In this document: one piece after another, positions 12,559 to 62,843 of the stretch | Numbering within the stretch: position 1 is the stretch's first letter | Layout: every line of letters starts with the position of its first letter | Assembly: GCA_016235585.1 (NCBI GenBank) | Contig: JACRJY010000023.1 | Location: 30,560-94,559 of the forward strand | DNA length: 64,000 nucleotides | Direction of reading: 5' to 3' | Source of the DNA: Verrucomicrobiota bacterium | GTDB lineage: Bacteria > Verrucomicrobiota > Verrucomicrobiia > Limisphaerales > JACRJY01 | Program-made: the position numbers and the translations under genes | The notes under the pieces: model-generated | Seen by the model: the letters and a program-made list of their open reading frames with translations, nothing else | Databases searched by the model: none | Told to the model about the DNA's origin: nothing

Positions 12559-13914
12559 TCAAACCTTGGCCTTCTTCTTGTTTTTCTTCTTCTCGTTCTT
12601 CGCTGCCTTGCGCTTCTCCTCGCCGTTCCAGCGCGCGTCCTCCCAGCGCGGGGGCTGCATCGAGGCGTTCCATTTGTCGAACAGCGACTGCAGTTCCTTT
12701 TTCTTCGCCGGGTTTTGCGCGGACAAATCCTTCCGCTCGCCGGGATCCTGCGCGAGGTTCACAAGCATCGGCTCCATGTCCTTGCCGGCCTTCACCAGTT
12801 TCCAGTCGCCGGAACGCACCGCGTGCTGCACGCCGAAGCGGAAGTAAAGTTCGCGCGGCGCGAGCTTGTCCACCTTGCCTTCGAGCAACGGGAGCAGATT
12901 CACGCCGTCAATCTGCCATTCGGGTTTCACCTCCGCGCCGGCCGCCGCGAGTGCGGTGGGCAGCACGTCGAGCTGAATGACCGGCTCGGTGGACACGCGC
13001 CCGCCGGGCACACGGCCTTTCCACGCGGCGATCCACGAGACGCGGATGCCGCCTTCCCAGCAAAACCACTTGCGCCCGCGCAGGCCGCCCACCTCGGCGG
13101 CGGCGGACGCGCCGCCGTTGTCGCTGATGAGGAAGAGGAGCGTGTTCTCCTCCTGCTTGCTCTCGCGCAGCTTTGCCAGCACCGCGCCGATGGCCTCGTC
13201 GGCCTCGGCCAGGTTCGCGGCGTAGTTTTGCAGCCCGCGGTCGAGGTGCTTGAACTTCTCCAGCCACTGCGGCGACGCGACGTGCGGCGTGTGGACGGCG
13301 TTGAACGACAGGTAAAGAAACCACGGCCTGCCTTTGCTCTGCTCGATGAAGTTCACCGACTCACGGGCGAACACTGGCGAGGTGATCGGCGCGCCGGGCA
13401 GTTCCTTCAACATCTCCTTGCCGCGATAGAACGACGACCCCTTGCCTTCGCCAAGATTGCCCACCGTGCCGACCGCGAAATCAAACCCGCGCGACGCCGG
13501 CATGAACTCCGGGCCCGTGTCGCCGAGGTGCCACTTGCCCACGATGCCCGTGGTGTAGCCGGCGGCCTTGAGCCGCTGCGCCATCGTCGTCTCGGTGAGG
13601 AGCAGCTCGCGCCCGGCCCGGGTCGGATTCGCGTCGTGGCCGGTGCGCGCCTGATAGCGGCCCGTCATCAAGCCCACGCGCCCCGGCGAGCACACGCAGC
13701 CCGACGAGTAGCCGTCGGTGAAGCGCACCCCGTTTTGCGCCAGCGAATCCATGTGCGGCGTGGGCGCGAGTTTGCCGCCATAGCAGCCCGGCTGCGCCCA
13801 GCCCATGTCGTCCACGTAGAAGATGAGGATGTTCGGCGGGGCTGGCTTCGCCGCGTGAAGCGCGGCCAGTGGAGCGAACAGAATCGAAATGATCAGTGCG
13901 AGGCTGTGCTTCAT
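12559..13914 (-). CDS. sulfatase, secreted
   Basis: The ORF opens at 14037; the likely start is MKHSLALIISILFAPLAALHA at 13914. Also ILIFYVDDMGW and CxPxR VCSPGRVGLMTGR. Tail EEKRKAAKNEKKKNKKKAKV. Confidence 0.9.
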   Translation of the reverse strand: MKHSLALIISILFAPLAALHAAKPAPPNILIFYVDDMGWAQPGCYGGKLAPTPHMDSLAQNGVRFTDGYSSGCVCSPGRVGLMTGRYQARTGHDANPTRAGRELLLTETTMAQRLKAAGYTTGIVGKWHLGDTGPEFMPASRGFDFAVGTVGNLGEGKGSSFYRGKEMLKELPGAPITSPVFARESVNFIEQSKGRPWFLYLSFNAVHTPHVASPQWLEKFKHLDRGLQNYAANLAEADEAIGAVLAKLRESKQEENTLLFLISDNGGASAAAEVGGLRGRKWFCWEGGIRVSWIAAWKGRVPGGRVSTEPVIQLDVLPTALAAAGAEVKPEWQIDGVNLLPLLEGKVDKLAPRELYFRFGVQHAVRSGDWKLVKAGKDMEPMLVNLAQDPGERKDLSAQNPAKKKELQSLFDKWNASMQPPRWEDARWNGEEKRKAAKNEKKKNKKKAKV

Positions 13915-14059
13915 GAATGTTTGGATAGCGGTTATTTCGCGCCGGGGCCAACAAATTCTTCGCGGGTCAGCTTGCCGCACTCGCGCGCATCTGAAAATGG
14001 CGCCGACAGCCTGCGGTTTCCCTCTTTGCCTTTCCATGGCGGGCGTTTACCATGGCCGC

Positions 14060-16402
14060 ATGATTTCCCGCTGGACACGGCTCGCGCTGGCACTGGCCGC
14101 GCTGGCTTTTGCCACACCTGCGGCCATCGCCGCACCGCAGAAGGAATACGGACGCGTTGAACTGATCCGCGACACCTGGGGCATCCCCCATGTGTTCTCG
14201 GCGACGGACGCGGGCGCGCTCTACGGGCTGGGCTGGGCGACTGCGGAAGAGCGCGGGTTTCAGATGACCTACAACCTGCGCATCATCCAAGGCCGGCTCG
14301 CGGAAATCATCGGCGATCGGCCGCGCGGCAGCCGCACGGAGACGACGGTGGATCACGACCGCAAGATGCGCACCTTCGGCTGGACGCCCGCCGCCGCGCG
14401 CACGGCGGCGCGGCTCGACGTTCCCACGCGCCAGCTGCTGGAGGCGTATTGCGAAGGCGTGAACGACAGTTTCGCGGCGCAGCGGGCGGCGGGCAGTTTG
14501 CATCCGTTGTTTCAATCGTTGAACGTCGCGCCGGAAAAGTGGACGCCCGCCGACTGCCTCTTGAGCTGGTGGCATCTCGCGCAATTCTTCGCGACCGACG
14601 GCACGCGCGATCTGCTCGCGGGGCGCAACCGCGCCAGTCCGCGCCCCGGCCAGCCGTCGCCGCCGCGCTCGACGGCGGCCTGGCTGGACGACGAAGCCGC
14701 GGTCGTGCAGCGCGCCGACGTGAACGATGCGTGGCTGCGGCGCGTGGAGGAGTTCCGCTCCACGCACGCGCTCGGTAAACCGGGCACCAGTGGTGCGGGG
14801 CCGAAATTCAGCCACGCCTGGGTGGTCGGCGGAAAAAAGACGACGACCGGTTCGGCGGTGCTGGTGAGCGACCCGCAGACGCCTGTGCGCAATCCGTCGC
14901 TGTGGATGGAATTCCACGTCAGCGGAAAAACCTTCGACGCGCGCGGCATCGGCGTGCCGGGCAGTCCGGCGTTGTTGATCGGATTCAACCGCCGCGTGGC
15001 GTGGGGACTGACGGCGCTGGGCGCAGATCAGGCGGACTTGTTCCGGCTGGAAACCGACCCGCAACGCCCGGACGAATACCGCTGGGACGGTCAGTGGCGG
15101 AAAATGGCGGCGCGCACCGAGCGCATCAAAGTGAAGGACGGCGCGGACGTGGAGTTGACAGTGCGGGAGACGCATCTGGGGCCGGTCACGTCGGCGTTTT
15201 GTTTCCGCCAATCCGGTGATCCAGAAGTGGCGCTCAAGCGCGTGCCGATGTGCGAGCCGGAGCGCGACACCATCACCGCCGGGCTGGCCATGATGCGCGC
15301 GCGTGACGCCGGGGAATTCACCGAGGCGCTCGCCGGCTGGCGGTTTCCCACCGCGAACTGCGTTTATGGCGACGTGGGCGGGCACATCGGCTACGCGGTC
15401 GTGGGCGCGATTCCGATCCGCTCAAAGCACGCGCCGGACGCGAACGGCAGCGAGGCGGCACCCGGCACGGGCCACGCGCATGACTGGCGGGGATTCGTGC
15501 CGGCGGAACTGCTGCCGCGCGCCTTCGATCCGAAGGCCGGCGTGCTGTTGAGCGCGAACCACCGTCCGGTCGCGTCCTTCTATCCGGTTCCGCTCGGCAT
15601 CAGCACCGGCTCGATGGGCGACACCATTCGCTCGTGGCGGCTGCGTGAGTTGCTGGGCGCGCGGCAGAAATTCACGCCGACGAATGTGCTGGAGGTTCAT
15701 TACGACACCGTCAATCCGGCGCGGCGCGAAATCGCGCGCCTCGGCCTGCACCTGCGCGACACGCAGCAGGGCGAATTTTCCAGGGAGGCCATGAACGCGC
15801 TCGTCGTGCTGGAGAAATGGCTCAAGGCCGGCGCGAGCAGTGACTTGCGGGCGGACGGCGCGGAACTGGCGGTGCGCGTCAGCACGTTCTTCCGCTTCGT
15901 CGCGACGCCGCTGGCCCTGAAATTCGGCGGCGGCGAATCCGGCCTCGCGCGCTTTCTCAAGGACAGCGCGAAACGGATTGCGGCTGATCCCAAGGCTGTC
16001 TTCGGCGAGGACGAACGCCGCTTCATCAACACGGTTCTCGGCGACGCCTGGCGCGAGCAGCAGGCGTCCGGGGCCACGCCGCGCGGGACGCTGGGCTGGT
16101 TTGACACGCTCGACGGCTTCGGCTCGCTGGACACGGCGCAAGACCTGCCGCCACCCGGCATCACCTGTCTCGACGGCCAGACGATCCACTCGCAGGCCGC
16201 GCAGTCCTACACGCAATGGGTGCCGCTGCACGACGTGGACGCCGCCCAGGCCCTCTGCCCCATCGGACACAGCGACCGCCCCGGCGGTCGTTACCGCACG
16301 AGCACGATGCCGCTGTGGGCCGGGGCGAAACTGCATTCCGCCCCGCTGGGCCGCAAGGCCGTGGAGAAAATAGCCGCTGAACGGATCGTGCTCTCGAAGT
16401 GA
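14060..16402 (+). CDS. penicillin acylase / acyl-homoserine-lactone acylase family Ntn hydrolase, secreted
   Basis: The ORF opens at 13889; the likely start is MISRWTRLALALAALAFATPAAIA at 14060. Also IRDTWGIPHVF and the putative autoproteolytic nucleophile FSHAWVVGGKKTTTGSAVLVSDPQ. Confidence 0.8.
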   Translation: MISRWTRLALALAALAFATPAAIAAPQKEYGRVELIRDTWGIPHVFSATDAGALYGLGWATAEERGFQMTYNLRIIQGRLAEIIGDRPRGSRTETTVDHDRKMRTFGWTPAAARTAARLDVPTRQLLEAYCEGVNDSFAAQRAAGSLHPLFQSLNVAPEKWTPADCLLSWWHLAQFFATDGTRDLLAGRNRASPRPGQPSPPRSTAAWLDDEAAVVQRADVNDAWLRRVEEFRSTHALGKPGTSGAGPKFSHAWVVGGKKTTTGSAVLVSDPQTPVRNPSLWMEFHVSGKTFDARGIGVPGSPALLIGFNRRVAWGLTALGADQADLFRLETDPQRPDEYRWDGQWRKMAARTERIKVKDGADVELTVRETHLGPVTSAFCFRQSGDPEVALKRVPMCEPERDTITAGLAMMRARDAGEFTEALAGWRFPTANCVYGDVGGHIGYAVVGAIPIRSKHAPDANGSEAAPGTGHAHDWRGFVPAELLPRAFDPKAGVLLSANHRPVASFYPVPLGISTGSMGDTIRSWRLRELLGARQKFTPTNVLEVHYDTVNPARREIARLGLHLRDTQQGEFSREAMNALVVLEKWLKAGASSDLRADGAELAVRVSTFFRFVATPLALKFGGGESGLARFLKDSAKRIAADPKAVFGEDERRFINTVLGDAWREQQASGATPRGTLGWFDTLDGFGSLDTAQDLPPPGITCLDGQTIHSQAAQSYTQWVPLHDVDAAQALCPIGHSDRPGGRYRTSTMPLWAGAKLHSAPLGRKAVEKIAAERIVLSK

Positions 16403-16428: not shown

Positions 16429-16562
16429 GTAGCGCAGGATGGCATCCTGCTGTTTCGCCGGTTGGCAACCGGCCGGGGCCGTGAAATTGCGAAGAGATTT
16501 CGCTGGCCGGGGTGTTGGCCGACTGCCAGTCGGCGAAACAGCAGATTGCCAATCTGCGCTAC
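16429..16562. repeat. 134-nt dyad-symmetric element with four perfect 17-nt palindromes, between convergent genes
   Basis: The palindromes are gcaggatGgcatcctgc (16434-16450), gccggttGgcaaccggc (16457-16473), gccgactGccagtcggc (16518-16534) and gcagattGccaatctgc (16541-16557). The outer flanks are gtagcgc / gcgctac. Confidence 0.85.
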
Positions 16563-16602: not shown

Positions 16603-17988
16603 TTACTTCCCCGTCTTCGCCTTCTTGCGCTTCTGCTTTTTCCCCGGCGTGGCGGGATCGCCCTCGGTCGTGCCGGGCGCGATGTTGCGGGTGTTCCAGC
16701 GGTCCCACTGCGCCTGCAACTCCTTCACCTTGTCGGGCAGCGACGCGGCGAGGTCGCGCGTTTCGCCAAGGTCGTCGCGCAGGTTGTAGAGCTTGGCGGC
16801 GGTCGCGCCCTGGTTGCGCCCGCCGGTGAGCGTGTCGGCGTTCGTGTCGTAGCGGACAAGCTTGAAATCCCCGGCGCGGATGGCCGTCTGCTCGCCGAAG
16901 CGCCAGAAAAGCGCGTCGTGCGGCGCGCCGGATTTTTCGCCGGCGAGGAACGGAAGCAGATTCACTCCGTCGAGTTTCCAATCCGGTTTCACCTCAAGCC
17001 CGGCGGCGGCGAGCGCGGTCGCGGTGAGGTCGAGTTGAATTGCCGGCGGCGCGAAGACGCCGGGTTTTACTTTGCCGGGCCATGACACGACGAACGGCAC
17101 GCGCACACCGCCTTCGAGCGTGGTGCGCTTGCTGCCGCGCAACGGCTTGTTGACCGAGCCGTTGACGGTGACGCCGGGCATCGTCGGCCCGCCATTGTCG
17201 CTGATGAAGGTGACGAGCGTGTTCCGCTCCTGGCCGGTCTCGGCGAGTTTTTTCCGCACCGCGCCGATGGCCTCGTCCATCGCGAGCATCATCGCGGCAT
17301 AGGTGCGGCGGGTCTTGTCCGTGATGCTCGCAAACTTCTTGAGTCGCGCGTCGTCGGCATGCATCGGCGTGTGGACGGCGTTGAACGCAAGATAGAGAAA
17401 CCACGGCTGGCCCTGATGCTTCTCGATGAACGCCACCGCCTCGCGCCCGAACGCGTCGGTCAGATACTCCTTCTCGTTCGCCGGCTCGGTGCCGCGCAGG
17501 ATGCCGGACGACTCGAAATAACTGTGCGCGCCGCCGAGGAAGCCGAAGAACTCCTCGAAGCCGCGCTTCTGCGGATGCTGCTCCGGCTTCGCGCCAAGAT
17601 GCCACTTGCCGACCATGCCGGTCTTGTAACCCGCCGCCTTGAGCCGGTCGGGCAACGTGGTTTCCGTCAGCGGCAACCCGCCGCCCGCGCCGCCGGAGTT
17701 GAACTCGTGCCCGAAGCGTTGCTGATAGCGGCCCGTGAGCAGCCCCGCGCGCGTCGGCGAGCAATACGGCCCGCTCACGTAGCCGCTGGTGAAGCGCACG
17801 CCCGCCGCCGCGAGCGCATCAAGGTTCGGCGTGGGAATGTCCTTGCACCCATGGAAGCCCACGTCGGCATAGCCCATGTCGTCGCCGACGATGATGAGGA
17901 TGTTGGGCCGCTTCGCCCCGGCGGCGGAAGCGTGGTCGCAAAGAATGCAAAGCGACGCCAGAAAGCCGAAGATAAGTGATTTGCTCAT
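16603..17988 (-). CDS. sulfatase, secreted
   Basis: The ORF opens at 18309, but that upstream stretch is encoded by intergenic repeats. The likely start is MSKSLIFGFLASLCILCDHASA at 17988. Also ILIIVGDDMGYAD and CxPxR YCSPTRAGLLTGR. Tail PGKKQKRKKAKTGK. Confidence 0.9.
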   Translation of the reverse strand: MSKSLIFGFLASLCILCDHASAAGAKRPNILIIVGDDMGYADVGFHGCKDIPTPNLDALAAAGVRFTSGYVSGPYCSPTRAGLLTGRYQQRFGHEFNSGGAGGGLPLTETTLPDRLKAAGYKTGMVGKWHLGAKPEQHPQKRGFEEFFGFLGGAHSYFESSGILRGTEPANEKEYLTDAFGREAVAFIEKHQGQPWFLYLAFNAVHTPMHADDARLKKFASITDKTRRTYAAMMLAMDEAIGAVRKKLAETGQERNTLVTFISDNGGPTMPGVTVNGSVNKPLRGSKRTTLEGGVRVPFVVSWPGKVKPGVFAPPAIQLDLTATALAAAGLEVKPDWKLDGVNLLPFLAGEKSGAPHDALFWRFGEQTAIRAGDFKLVRYDTNADTLTGGRNQGATAAKLYNLRDDLGETRDLAASLPDKVKELQAQWDRWNTRNIAPGTTEGDPATPGKKQKRKKAKTGK

Positions 17989-18051
17989 ACGGTGCGCTGC
18001 TAGACCGGCATGGCTGGGGAAAGGTTTCAGATCGAATTCCGAAAACAGCGT

Positions 18052-18540
18052 GGGGAGCGCACGCGCCTCGCGTGCTGTTTTCCGCGCCCTCGCGGAAAAC
18101 CGGCGTGGCACGAAATCGTGCGACACCCTTAGCCGAATCCATGCGGTTGAAGCGGGGAGCGCGACCGTCCCGGTCGCCCCCGTCGGCGTCCCGCCGACGG
18201 GTTTGGGGCGAACCCATCGCTCACCCAACGGTGCGTCTGGCAGGCGCGGGGAAGTTTTCAGCGGGACGCCGAAAACCGCGGGCGAGACGCCACGCGCTCC
18301 CCATTCCACTGCATGGATTCGGCCTAAAGCCGGTCAGAAAATTAGGTTGTGAGTGGCAGAGGCCACTGGCCTGTCCCGGCGGGCTATCAATCCGCCGGAC
18401 TTTTCGGCGGCAAGTTGCCGTCGAAAACGGGCTGGTAGCCCGTGCCACCCATTTTTCAGACAGGCCTTTACGAACTTGTTCGCGCCACCGCGCGGGATGC
18501 GAGGGCGCATCCTGCCACACCCGAGGCGGGTGTGCTCCCC
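18052..18540. repeat. expanded copy of a GGGGAGCGC-TIR element, containing nested insertions
   Basis: It starts ggggagcgcacgcgcctcgcgtgctgttttccgcgccctcgcggaaaacc and ends ggatgcgagggcgcatcctgccacacccgaggcgggtgtgctcccc. Both ends match, in inverted orientation, the compact copy at 25081-25232. Confidence 0.75.
18154..18302. repeat. nested 149-bp element with perfect 10-bp TIRs (ggggagcgcg / cgcgctcccc)
   Basis: It is inserted between ccgaatccatgc (18133-18144) and gcatggattcgg (18311-18322), which are the two halves of a pre-existing hairpin. Confidence 0.7.
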
Positions 18541-25080: not shown

Positions 25081-25232
25081 GGGGAGCACACCCGCCCCGG
25101 GTGTGGCGGGATGCGCCCTCGCATCCTGCCCCGTGGCGCGAACCATGGCCGTGAAAATTTTGTATGGTTTCGGGCCACGCCGGGTTTTCCGCGAGGGCGC
25201 GGAAAACTGCACGCGAGGCGCGTGCGCTCCCC
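25081..25232. repeat. compact 152-bp copy of the GGGGAGCGC-TIR element
   Basis: It runs ggggagcacacccgccccgggtgtggcgggatgcgccctcgcatcc ... ttttccgcgagggcgcggaaaactgcacgcgaggcgcgtgcgctcccc. Its reverse complement aligns to 18052-18115 (about 95% over 60 nt) and to 18495-18540 (2 mismatches in 46). Confidence 0.8.
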
Positions 25233-60071: not shown

Positions 60072-62843
60072 TCAGGTCGAGACCCCCAGCCAGCCGCGCG
60101 TCACCTGGAAATCCGCGTTGCCATCGGCCTGCGCGCGCGGCTGGTGTTTGCCGGCCAGCGTGTCGGCCAGCAATTGAACGAGCGCGCGGGCCGTCGCGAT
60201 TTCATCCGGCTGGTCGAGCACCAGGTCCACTTCGGAGGAAACCGCCGCCACGCTCACCTGCAAGGTCGGCACGAAGGGATGCGCCTGCGCCGGGGCGTCG
60301 CCCACAAAGGCGAGCAGCAGTTCCACGCCGCACGCGCCCAGCCCGGTGAACGCCTCGACGAGGTGCGTGCCCGCCGATTCCATGACGTGAAAGCCGGGCT
60401 TCGCCGCGATGCCGCCGTAAGCCAGCGTGGGCGCGGGCGGCGAATCAAACAGTTCGCGGGCGAAGGCGGGCGTCGCCAGCAACGGCGAAGTTTGCGGCAC
60501 GACGACCGTGCCGCCGTTCTCCACGAGTGCGCGGGTGAGGAGCGCAAGCGCCGCCGCGATTTTGTCCGGCACTTCGCCGTTCGCAGCGAGACCAAGGCGG
60601 AAGTTTTTTCCAGATGCACGGGGAGCGCACGCGTCTCGCGTGCCGTGTTCGGCGTCCCGCCGAACACTTTCCCGCGCGGAGTCCGCAGCGGGGACGCTGC
60701 GGACAGCAGCCGGGACGGCTGCGCTCCCCTGTTCAAACCACTTCACCACTTTTTCCGTCACGTTCTCGATGCCGCCGTCGAGCTGGATGCTCGCGAAGCC
60801 CATCCGCGAATAGTCCATGTCGTGCGCGGCGAGGAAGTTGCGGATGGCGTCGTTGTGCGTCTTCTCGCAGCCGTGCTCGACGAGGCACACGCGCTCGGCC
60901 AGCGGATGCGCGGCGTAACCGGCGATGGTCTGCTCCAGAATCTCCACCGCCTCGCCGGAGACGCCGCAGCCCTCGGTGTGCGGCAGCGCGACGTAGCGCG
61001 GCGTGGCGTCGCCGCGCGTGGCGTTGAGTTTGTCGGCAATCATCCGGCTGATTTGCCCGGCGCAAAGACTCGTGGGAATGATGAGGCGGGTGCGCCACGC
61101 TTCGGAAGGACAAGCTGCGCGAGTCCCCAACTGGGCCAGGAAATTTGTGGGACTCGCGTAGCTCGTCCCTCCGACGGCAAGCTTCAGCTTCACCGGTTCG
61201 CCAGCGGGCTTCGGACGGCTGGCGAACTGCGGCAGCGACTTCACCGAGGTCTGCCGCCACTCGCGCCAGAGCTGCGCCTGCGAGTGGCCGGCCTTTTCAC
61301 CGACGCTCTTCATTCCCGACACGACGCGCATCGTGTAGTCGAACGCCTCCGCGCCGAGCCGCTCCATCGGCTCGCCGTCGAGGTAGCGGCCCGCGTTGAA
61401 ATCCATGTCGCGGCTCAAGAGATTGAAGCGCGGCGTGTTGGTCATCAGCTTGATGGTCGGCACGAAGGGATGGTTCGTGATGGAGCCGTTGCCTGTGCTG
61501 AACAAAATCAAGTTGCAGCCCGCCGCGACCTGGCCGGCGATGCTTTCGAGGTCGTTGCCGGGGCTGTTCATGAAGCAGAAGCCCGGCTCGCGCATCGGCT
61601 CGCCGTAGCCGATGACGTAGTCCAGCCGCACCGCCGGGTCTTTCTTGCGCGCCGCGCCGATGGATTTGATGGCGATGTTGTAGAGGCCGCGAAAGATGTT
61701 GCCGCCGCTGGGATTCGTCTGCCCGCTGACGCCGTGCCACGAGAGCTTCTCCTCGAACTCCTTGAGCGTGTCCAAAAACTTCCGCGCCGTGGCGAGGTCG
61801 CGGACTTTGGCGAGCACATACGGCTCCGCGCCCATCAGTTCGTCCGTCTCCGCGAGATTCGCCGAGCCGCCGTGGCGGACGGTCTCGCGCGCGATGATGC
61901 CGACGACGGGATTGCCGGACACGCCGCTAAAGGCGTCCGAGCCGCCGCACTGCAAACCAATCTTCAGGTGGCGCAACGGCTGTTCGGTGCGCGGCGTGGA
62001 ACTGGCCTGGAGCAAAAGTTCCTCCACGAGTTTCGCGCCTGCCGCGACGTTCGCCGCGAAATCCTTTCCGAGCCGGAAGAAGTGGTGCGGCACGGCGTCG
62101 AGCGGATAATGGTTCGCGCGCATCCAGTCGCGGAGCGCGTCGTTGTTAATCGGCTCGTGGCCGTAATCCACCGCGAGCACCGCGCCGACGTTGGGATTCG
62201 TCACCCAGCCCGCGAGCGTGCGGAGCGAGAGTTCGAGATTGTTGGGCCGGCCCGCTTCGCCGCCCTCGGTGTGCGCGACGGCAACCACGCCGTCGAGGTT
62301 TGGAAATTTTTCCGGCGCATCCTTGAACTTCGAGGCCAGCACACGCGCGAAACTGCCCGTGAGCGAGCTAGTGCCGAGCACGACGACATAGTTGCGCGTG
62401 CCCGCGCCGCGCCCGCCGTTGCGGGCAAATCCAAGGAAAGTGCGCGGGCTGGCGTAGAGCGGCACTTGCTCGGCGGGCAGGAAGTTTTTCTCGTCGAGCG
62501 TGCAGGGCTGGAAATAGTCCGTGAAGTTCGGCTCCGCCGGAATTTCAAAACCCACGTGCCGCGAGTGCAGCGCCTCGATCATCGTCGCGTTGCACACGTA
62601 GTCACCCGGCGCGAGCGGACGCAGCGCGCGACCAAACGGCTGTCCCCACGACGTGAGCATTTGTCCTGCGGCGACCGGGGCGACGACGAAGCGATGCGCC
62701 TCCAGCACCGTGTGCGACAGCGCGAAACTCCGCTCCGGCATCACGACGACCGTGCCCGCGTCGAGGCGGCGGATGGCGATGGCGCAATTGTCACCAGCGG
62801 CGGGGAGGCGGCCAGCCTGGGCAAAATTCAGTGCTTCACTCAC
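60072..62843 (-). CDS. UxaA (altronate/galactarate dehydratase) family protein with a second, divergent UxaA-like module
   Basis: 923 aa. Module 1 has an N-terminal SAF-like segment NCAIAIRRLDAGTVV, then VVAVAHTEGG, GLQCGGSDAFSG and NLILFSTGNGSITNHPFVPTIKL. Module 2 has YVALPHTEGCG, LGLAANG and ELLLAFVGDAPAQAHPFVPTLQV. Confidence 0.8.
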   Translation of the reverse strand: MSEALNFAQAGRLPAAGDNCAIAIRRLDAGTVVVMPERSFALSHTVLEAHRFVVAPVAAGQMLTSWGQPFGRALRPLAPGDYVCNATMIEALHSRHVGFEIPAEPNFTDYFQPCTLDEKNFLPAEQVPLYASPRTFLGFARNGGRGAGTRNYVVVLGTSSLTGSFARVLASKFKDAPEKFPNLDGVVAVAHTEGGEAGRPNNLELSLRTLAGWVTNPNVGAVLAVDYGHEPINNDALRDWMRANHYPLDAVPHHFFRLGKDFAANVAAGAKLVEELLLQASSTPRTEQPLRHLKIGLQCGGSDAFSGVSGNPVVGIIARETVRHGGSANLAETDELMGAEPYVLAKVRDLATARKFLDTLKEFEEKLSWHGVSGQTNPSGGNIFRGLYNIAIKSIGAARKKDPAVRLDYVIGYGEPMREPGFCFMNSPGNDLESIAGQVAAGCNLILFSTGNGSITNHPFVPTIKLMTNTPRFNLLSRDMDFNAGRYLDGEPMERLGAEAFDYTMRVVSGMKSVGEKAGHSQAQLWREWRQTSVKSLPQFASRPKPAGEPVKLKLAVGGTSYASPTNFLAQLGTRAACPSEAWRTRLIIPTSLCAGQISRMIADKLNATRGDATPRYVALPHTEGCGVSGEAVEILEQTIAGYAAHPLAERVCLVEHGCEKTHNDAIRNFLAAHDMDYSRMGFASIQLDGGIENVTEKVVKWFEQGSAAVPAAVRSVPAADSARESVRRDAEHGTRDACAPRASGKNFRLGLAANGEVPDKIAAALALLTRALVENGGTVVVPQTSPLLATPAFARELFDSPPAPTLAYGGIAAKPGFHVMESAGTHLVEAFTGLGACGVELLLAFVGDAPAQAHPFVPTLQVSVAAVSSEVDLVLDQPDEIATARALVQLLADTLAGKHQPRAQADGNADFQVTRGWLGVST
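60620..60729. repeat. 110-bp GGGGAGCGC-TIR hairpin-chain element lying inside the UxaA-like CDS
   Basis: It is bounded by ggggagcgca ... tgcgctcccc. It contains four consecutive hairpins: gcacgcg/cgcgtgc, gtgttcggcg/cgccgaacac, gtccgcagcg/cgctgcggac and gcagcc/ggctgc. The first 24 nt differ by 1 nt from the start of the 18052 copy. Confidence 0.8.

Follow-up and report, generated by a model that had tools for sequence, protein, structure and literature searches.

What keeps four perfect 17-nt palindromes, no two with the same stem, together within 134 nt of extragenic DNA? The question is raised by positions 16429-16562 of a 64,000-nt stretch of the Verrucomicrobiota contig JACRJY010000023.1 (the window hereafter, meaning the whole stretch that was analysed). 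We put the probability at roughly 85% that this element is a REP doublet forming hairpins (REPIN), that is, a head-to-head heterodimer of two compound repetitive extragenic palindromes (REPs) carrying GTAG tags, and that it was spread by a REP-associated tyrosine transposase (RAYT), which would be encoded elsewhere in the genome. Each half can be read as a compound REP composed of a GTAGC tag, a hairpin with a 7-bp stem and a 3-nt loop, a linker of the form YGTDTC and a second hairpin of like format. The doublet would then consist of two such compound REPs in inverted orientation with their tags outermost, a non-autonomous repeat that was probably spread by a RAYT of the Y1/HUH type. The parts of the element are as follows.

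16429-16562, no strand assigned: complete element of 134 nt, a probable REPIN, with two compound REPs head to head as a heterodimer and the GTAG tags outermost (from the doublet layout and the scores of covariance model R1)
16429-16433, plus strand: 5′ tag GTAGC of the left half; the tag recurs beside RAYT genes found by protein similarity
16434-16450, plus strand: hairpin P1, GCAGGATGGCATCCTGC, with the 7-bp stem GCAGGAT/ATCCTGC and the 3-nt loop GGC
16451-16456, plus strand: linker TGTTTC, which reads YGTDTC across a wider set of copies
16457-16473, plus strand: hairpin P2, GCCGGTTGGCAACCGGC, with the 7-bp stem GCCGGTT/AACCGGC and the loop GGC
16474-16517, no strand assigned: 44-nt spacer, including a small hairpin, GCGAA-GAGAT-TTCGC, at 16489-16503
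16518-16534, minus strand: hairpin P3, GCCGACTGCCAGTCGGC, the inner one of the right half, reading GCCGACT-GGC-AGTCGGC on the minus strand
16535-16540, minus strand: linker of the right half, TGTTTC in this orientation and GAAACA on the plus strand
16541-16557, minus strand: hairpin P4, GCAGATTGCCAATCTGC, the outer one of the right half, reading GCAGATT-GGC-AATCTGC on the minus strand
16558-16562, minus strand: 5′ tag GTAGC of the right half, evident from the sequence (GCTAC on the plus strand)

An exhaustive scan of the 64-kb window for perfect 8+1+8 palindromes found seven in total, four of them inside the element. The two arms of its dyad, 46 nt each, span 16429-16474 and 16517-16562 and are 83% complementary. 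The two halves differ at GA/TC versus AT/AT in P1 and P4 and at GT/AC versus AC/GT in P2 and P3, and despite these changes every palindrome is still self-complementary. An initial annotation, made by a model from the sequence alone, had described four perfect palindromes, halves that are inverted copies of one another and stem differences that compensate each other, and all of this description held. It had also pointed to a smaller hairpin at the centre, which is present but is not conserved among other copies, and to a dispersed family of hairpins beside GCGCTAC; that family does occur in other genomes, but no second GTAGCGC site with an adjoining hairpin was found elsewhere in the window. 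Covariance model R1, run on the window, gave high scores at the two halves of the element only (70.5 and 71.6 bits). An Rfam 15 search of the element gave nothing but microRNA-precursor matches that fall below threshold (24-30 bits, where the cut-offs are 63-100), which are the usual artefact of long hairpins.

Comparison with other copies supports selection on base pairing rather than on sequence, as the initial annotation had argued from the four palindromes. We scanned one genome per species for the family pattern GTAGCGC-N13-GCTGTTTCGC, in which the inside of P1 and almost the whole of P2 are free. The pattern fixes GTAGCGC, the linker and the first GC of P2, so the constancy of the tag in the resulting alignment (A1) is not independent evidence. 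A1 contains 43 distinct half-elements together with the two window halves (n = 45), two half-elements with indels having been left out; the 43 were picked by taxon label, because a choice based on pairing would have been circular. In this alignment, 97.6% of stem cells are paired, compared with 81.8% in shuffles, and 106 cells are changed on both sides, compared with 29. None of 500 shuffles reached either of these values or the covariation score of 0.453 (0.135 in shuffles). Both helices are almost fully paired (98.7% for helix 1 and 96.5% for helix 2), and sliding the 3′ partner by 1-3 columns reduces pairing to 16-52%. Covariation across other genomic copies, which the initial annotation had put forward as a check, is thus strong.

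The alignment also redefines the unit that is conserved. Both hairpins share the frame GC-n-G-nn-T[nnn]A-nn-C-n-GC, within which pairs 3, 5 and 6 vary only jointly. The central three nucleotides are variable (GGC, TGC, TCC, TTC, GGT and others) and often not self-complementary; the unit is therefore a 7-bp stem with a 3-nt loop and not a 17-nt palindrome as such.

The pattern scan yielded at least 116 loci. Of the 120 matches listed, 61 are fully Watson-Crick paired, with 7 pairs in each of the two hairpins, whereas chance matches have 0-5 pairs. True members are overwhelmingly in Verrucomicrobiota metagenome-assembled genomes (MAGs) and often on many contigs of one MAG, with at least 32 half-elements on at least 16 contigs of MAG BP_782. 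The same repeat was also found on contigs from bins labelled Bifidobacterium/Bifidobacteriaceae, Klebsiella and 'Proteobacteria bacterium WB4_2_1501' (loci L005, L006, L021, L023, L076, L086, L095, L103, L112, L113, L115, L039, L056, L074, L078, L082, L092 and L106); we suspect that these off-taxon contigs are mis-binned or belong to mislabelled bins.

A GTAG tag next to a hairpin is a REP signature, and we therefore looked for a Y1 transposase throughout the fetched DNA. The initial annotation had noted the tag and hairpin as a motif but had not recognised it as the mark of a REP; relatives of the element flank RAYT genes. The search gave one match, in locus L001 from a Verrucomicrobiales MAG, where an open reading frame (ORF) at 906-1694 sits between complete doublets at 789-922 and 1691-1824. 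This ORF scores 28.9 bits with Pfam Y1_Tnp, above the gathering score, and 78.7 bits (E = 3.9e-22) with the NCBIfam model REP_Tyr_transpos (NF047646), and its best match in the PDB is 4ER8, the TnpA-REP of E. coli. Its 4340 homologues are ~245 aa long, and the Joint Genome Institute (JGI) names many of them 'REP element-mobilizing transposase RayT'. In an alignment of 20 sequences, the HUH motif NHVH and the tyrosine motif Y-x3-NP are invariant, and all 20 aligned homologues match REP_Tyr_transpos (best E = 6.6e-30).

Scanning contigs with the same 20-sequence alignment gave 80 independent metagenome RAYT loci, most of which carry tagged hairpins. At least 20 of the RAYT loci, among the closer relatives (at least 54% identity), have the two-hairpin half-element on one or both sides. 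A generic detector, which asks for a tag G[TG][AG]G together with a perfect hairpin of 7 bp at most 400 nt from the RAYT gene, found tagged perfect hairpins in 75 of the 80 loci, compared with 6 in 274 kb of unrelated control loci. Because the loci were identified by protein similarity, the GTAG tag found there is not imposed by the search. The tag is GTAGC in most cases and GTAGG or GTAAC in some, with GGAGC beside the most distant RAYTs (43-49% identity). Gene and repeat can overlap: in L001 (1691-1694), and in 25 of 73 evaluable loci (for example, L117, L118, L120, L121 and L122), the RAYT frame ends in the TAG of the downstream GTAG tag, with the hairpin directly after it. L121 is the single case in which the RAYT stop codon is TAA; its tag reads GTAAC.

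The surroundings of the RAYT genes show further regularities. The doublet-RAYT-doublet unit is bracketed by a direct repeat of 94-108 nt in L001 (699-792 and 1834-1927, 85% identical) and in L130 (822-929 and 2029-2136, 94% identical), and the L001 repeat resembles, by eye, the 5′ end of the neighbouring minus-strand gene. The same flank recurs beside RAYT loci on several contigs, from which the position of the RAYT on the chromosome may be conserved. For the RAYT homologues P0001-P0120, most host contigs are just 1-3 kb long, which may reflect assemblies that were broken by the flanking repeats.

The inverted doublet is the predominant arrangement in the family. Scanning every fetched locus with relaxed criteria, we recovered 203 half-elements and, among them, 74 unique inverted doublets whose tags are outermost; singletons lie mostly at locus ends or beside a degenerate partner, and tandem arrays of doublets occur in L059, L077 and L099. 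Doublets are 98-163 nt long, in clusters of ~98-117, 132-138 and 148-163 nt, and the mode of 134 nt is the length of the window copy. The linker is YGTDTC in the wider set of copies, and the spacer sequence is not conserved between genomes. No target-site duplication was seen at the 74 doublets: 59 have no flanking direct repeat, 12 have one of 1 nt, 2 have one of 2 nt and a single doublet has one of 3 nt. The base at position -1 of GTAG is a pyrimidine at 83% of ends.

Within a doublet, the hairpins tend to differ. Four distinct stems are present in 56 of 74 doublets; 9 of the 74 have identical outer hairpins, and none has identical inner ones. Agreement between the halves at variable stem positions is 44%, and for the inner hairpin it is 24%, compared with 40% expected from other loci. 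Loops, by contrast, agree in 47% of cases within doublets and 20% between loci. In the window copy, the stem differences weaken the long inter-half hairpin by ~24 kcal/mol relative to a hypothetical homodimer (DNA parameters).

A transposase that recognizes folded DNA would account for these patterns. By analogy with the TnpA-REP proteins of E. coli, S. maltophilia and Marinomonas, what the RAYT would read, on one strand present as folded single-stranded DNA (ssDNA), is the tag together with the loop and the shape that a perfect stem gives. Stem positions that are not read by base identity could then change freely as long as the partner changes too, giving the compensatory pattern; pairing would be kept while sequence changes because the RAYT most likely reads the hairpins as folded ssDNA. 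Keeping the four stems of a doublet different would weaken the long inter-half hairpin and favour four local hairpins. Binding and cleavage of the single-stranded REP by the RAYT are predicted here from homology to E. coli TnpA-REP (4ER8) and from published assays on three systems. In those assays on three TnpA-REP/REP pairs, the enzyme was strand-specific, working on one strand as folded ssDNA, and the GTAG tag was needed for cleavage (Corneloup et al. 2021, PMC8266576). For TnpA-REP acting on perfect-palindrome REPs, specific loop bases are read and a stem mismatch disables the substrate, whereas complementary swaps are largely tolerated (PMC8266576). These published constraints match the pattern observed here, so compensatory change is explained without invoking RNA.

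The genomic position of the element, and with it the case for RNA, needs to be set against this explanation. As the initial annotation had placed it, the element lies between an acylase gene and a sulfatase gene that converge.

13889-16402, plus strand: penicillin-amidase family gene (Pfam PF01804, E = 5.7e-141), 100% identical to MBI5772504.1 from a Verrucomicrobiota MAG
16603-18309, minus strand: sulfatase gene, convergent (Pfam PF00884, E = 8.9e-67)

The element is extragenic, 26 nt past the penicillin-amidase stop codon and 40 nt from the stop codon of the convergent sulfatase gene (16603), a position suited to a main role at the RNA level, either as a bidirectional terminator, as initially suggested, or as a 3′ untranslated region (UTR) hairpin shielding both convergent mRNAs from exonucleases. 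Several family copies begin less than 40 nt from a stop codon, and the RNA fold of the element is very stable on both strands (-101.7 and -90.9 kcal/mol; z = -8.6 on the plus strand and -6.7 on the minus strand for single-strand folding relative to dinucleotide shuffles). E. coli REPs have, moreover, been reported to influence mRNA turnover (PMC3733652 and PMC3479197). We nonetheless regard an RNA-level main role as unlikely. No T/U run follows any of the hairpins (the next letters are CGGGGCC, GAAACA and GCTACGCC, and GCTACCGGGG on the minus strand), and a promoter and terminator scan found no site inside the element. Nor do the doublets prefer convergent genes: according to a simple gene caller based on GC content at third codon positions (GC3), 44 of 48 doublets are free of a spanning coding-like ORF and the flanking genes form 20 tandem, 10 convergent and 6 divergent pairs, near random expectation. 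Together with the missing U-tract, the presence of copies in all three contexts alike speaks against a bidirectional terminator. Copies flank RAYT genes, the spacer is not conserved and G-U pairs are no commoner than A-C mismatches, all of which weighs against an RNA-level main role. An RNA-level effect in both convergent 3′ UTRs is possible as a secondary consequence.

Two further explanations appear very improbable to us. A dimeric protein, regulatory or nucleoid, could bind the palindromes as double-stranded sites, or they could form cruciforms, and it is true that each site is a perfect palindrome with a conserved GC.G..T...A..C.GC and that several proteins have been reported to bind E. 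coli REPs and bacterial interspersed mosaic elements (BIMEs) (PMC2817692). A dimeric binder, however, needs no complementarity at non-conserved positions, yet pairs 3, 5 and 6 covary strictly; this covariation led us to reject the duplex protein-binding sites that the initial annotation had entertained. The central three nucleotides are, in addition, free and often not self-complementary (as in TGC, TCC and TTC), and the 5′ tag is asymmetric. The small size (~134 nt), terminal inverted repeats, non-coding sequence and dispersed occurrence would equally suit a MITE (a miniature transposable element with inverted repeats) of a classical DDE-transposase insertion sequence, recognised by its 46-nt terminal inverted repeats. 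Such an origin has similarly little to recommend it. Flanking direct repeats are absent from 59 of 74 doublets and reach at most 3 nt in the others, and this lack of target duplication was the ground on which a DDE-type MITE was discarded; moreover, the sole transposase found beside copies is the Y1/HUH RAYT, and the terminal repeats within one copy are systematically non-identical. We also dismissed CRISPR (short palindromic repeats that are clustered and regularly interspaced), as direct repeats arrayed at regular spacing are absent.

Several observations weigh against a REPIN spread by a RAYT. The 64-kb window contains no RAYT and just one doublet of the GTAGC family, and the L001 RAYT, at 78.7 bits, falls just short of the NF047646 cut-off of 80. 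In the window copy, the long hairpin (-51.5 kcal/mol) is more stable than the four local hairpins (-31.8 kcal/mol; DNA parameters). Stem mismatches, counted in members defined by the other hairpin, are ~15 G-T and ~13 A-C, numbers that are few and even, and their ratio does not separate constraint at the DNA level from constraint at the RNA level. Finally, neither an empty site nor a presence/absence polymorphism was found for the GTAGC family, whose mobility is therefore a prediction. The closest acylase orthologues (~74% identity) are followed by a beta-lactamase or acetyltransferase gene instead of the sulfatase gene, and lack the element. When flank pairs were compared by BLAST with all the loci fetched, every match was repeat-to-repeat or RAYT-to-RAYT, and none marked a clean empty site.

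How does the element compare with REPs that are already known? GTAG REPs have been described in eight phyla, with Opitutus terrae as a verrucomicrobial host (Di Nocera, De Gregorio & Rocco 2013, PMC3733652). They fall into sub-families with alternative complementary stem residues and form head-to-head dimers, often heterodimers, with spacers of 20-100 bp, and RAYT genes are flanked, and sometimes overlapped, by them (PMC3733652). The element resembles these REPs in its 5′ GTAG tag beside a stem (6-9 bp with a 2-3-nt loop in the published families) and in the alternative complementary residues of its stems. It resembles their head-to-head heterodimers in having its tags outside, unlike stems, a spacer that sometimes contains a small stem-loop, a mostly extragenic location and RAYT genes flanked by REPs (PMC3733652). 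It differs in that each half consists of two hairpins with a conserved YGTDTC linker; the comparable compound unit in that survey is found only in Pseudomonas putida and P. fluorescens, where hundreds of copies join a degenerate GTAG-1 unit to an unrelated stem-loop (PMC3733652). The comparison with the O. terrae families GTAG-17 to GTAG-20 is by their published description (PMC3733652).

In the REPINs of P. fluorescens, the doublet is the replicative unit, compensatory changes have been noted and a 'clover' fold has been discussed as the form recognised by the RAYT (Bertels & Rainey 2011, PMC3116915). The shared features are inverted doublets of ~100-130 nt, an extragenic location, occurrence singly or in tandem clusters, a RAYT flanked by the same repeats and the compensatory changes themselves. 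In P. fluorescens, however, these changes preserve the long inter-half hairpin (PMC3116915), whereas here the local hairpins are kept (97.6% paired) and the halves agree at only 44% of variable stem positions. The group 3 TnpA-REP/REP pairs known from Stenotrophomonas maltophilia and Marinomonas likewise combine GTAG with a perfect palindrome and a 3-nt loop (PMC8266576). In those pairs, the loop base and the perfection of the stem matter (PMC8266576); in agreement with this, loops here are shared more within doublets and stems covary.

The transposase also differs. At ~245 aa, the RAYT described here exceeds the 165-aa chain of E. coli TnpA-REP (4ER8), and its match to the NCBIfam model is confined to the C-terminal residues 143-252. 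With the IS200/IS605 insertion sequences and their miniature derivatives the system shares a Y1/HUH transposase, subterminal hairpins read as ssDNA and the lack of target-site duplication. The L001 ORF scores only 23.6 bits with the NCBIfam IS200 model (cut-off 55), compared with 78.7 with REP_Tyr_transpos, and the ends of IS200/IS605 elements, unlike those of the family here, are not mutual inverted repeats and have no GTAG tag.

All of the main features have thus been described for REPs before, and the element belongs to a further REP family with a two-hairpin unit. Two points set it apart: in many Verrucomicrobiota the two-hairpin half-element, joined by a conserved linker, takes the same regular form, and conservation falls on the local hairpins, not on the long one. 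Whether this unit amounts to a design of its own is more doubtful. Because four distinct stems occur in most doublets, the inner hairpins are never identical and inner agreement is below expectation (0.24 versus 0.40), we tentatively suggest, as an idea more probably wrong than right, that selection prevents the long inter-half hairpin and that a four-leaf 'clover' of ssDNA is presented to the ~245-aa RAYT. On the same tentative footing, this RAYT clade might have co-diversified with the tag (GTAGC, GTAGG or GGAGC) across Verrucomicrobiota, often ending its own frame in the TAG of the downstream REP.

A striking sequence is in this way explained without a new mechanism. REP/REPIN-RAYT systems have been studied chiefly in Gammaproteobacteria, and the same logic appears here in many uncultured Verrucomicrobiota. 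The family also forms a natural mutagenesis series, with three freely covarying stem pairs in a fixed frame, that could guide work on how RAYTs read their substrates. Annotation should treat doublets of this kind as repeats to be masked, and should call neither a terminator nor a small-RNA gene from them.

A second, related repeat family occurs in the window, with the tag GGGGAGC and otherwise the same layout of tag, hairpin (7-bp stem with a 3-nt loop), linker and hairpin. It too forms inverted doublets with tags outermost, and all copies, at 18052-18540, 25081-25232 and 60620-60729, are intergenic. At least eight half-elements are present in the window, starting at 18053, 18155, 25082 and 60621 on the plus strand and at 18301, 18539, 25231 and 60728 on the minus strand. 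Hairpins tagged GGAGC flank more distant RAYT homologues (for example, in L183, L188, L189 and L191-L196). The doublet at 25081-25232 has arms of 65 and 63 nt around a 24-nt spacer, and local alignment shows that these arms recur in opposite orientation at 18052-18115 and 18478-18540, with 362 nt between them. This 362-nt insert contains a complete GGGGAGC doublet (18154-18302) and further small hairpins, so that 18052-18540 looks like a nested insertion into a doublet spacer, an indirect sign that GGGGAGC elements move.

Two more of the seven perfect 17-nt palindromes in the window, at 815-831 and 903-919, belong to an inverted-repeat element at 795-935 (CCCTCACCCTGGCCCTCTCCCCTGGGGAGAGGGG ... 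CCCTCTCCCCCGGGGAGAGGGCCGGGGTGAGGGG), a motif that presumably resembles the GGGAGAGGG/GGGTGAGGG-type repeats of other bacteria.

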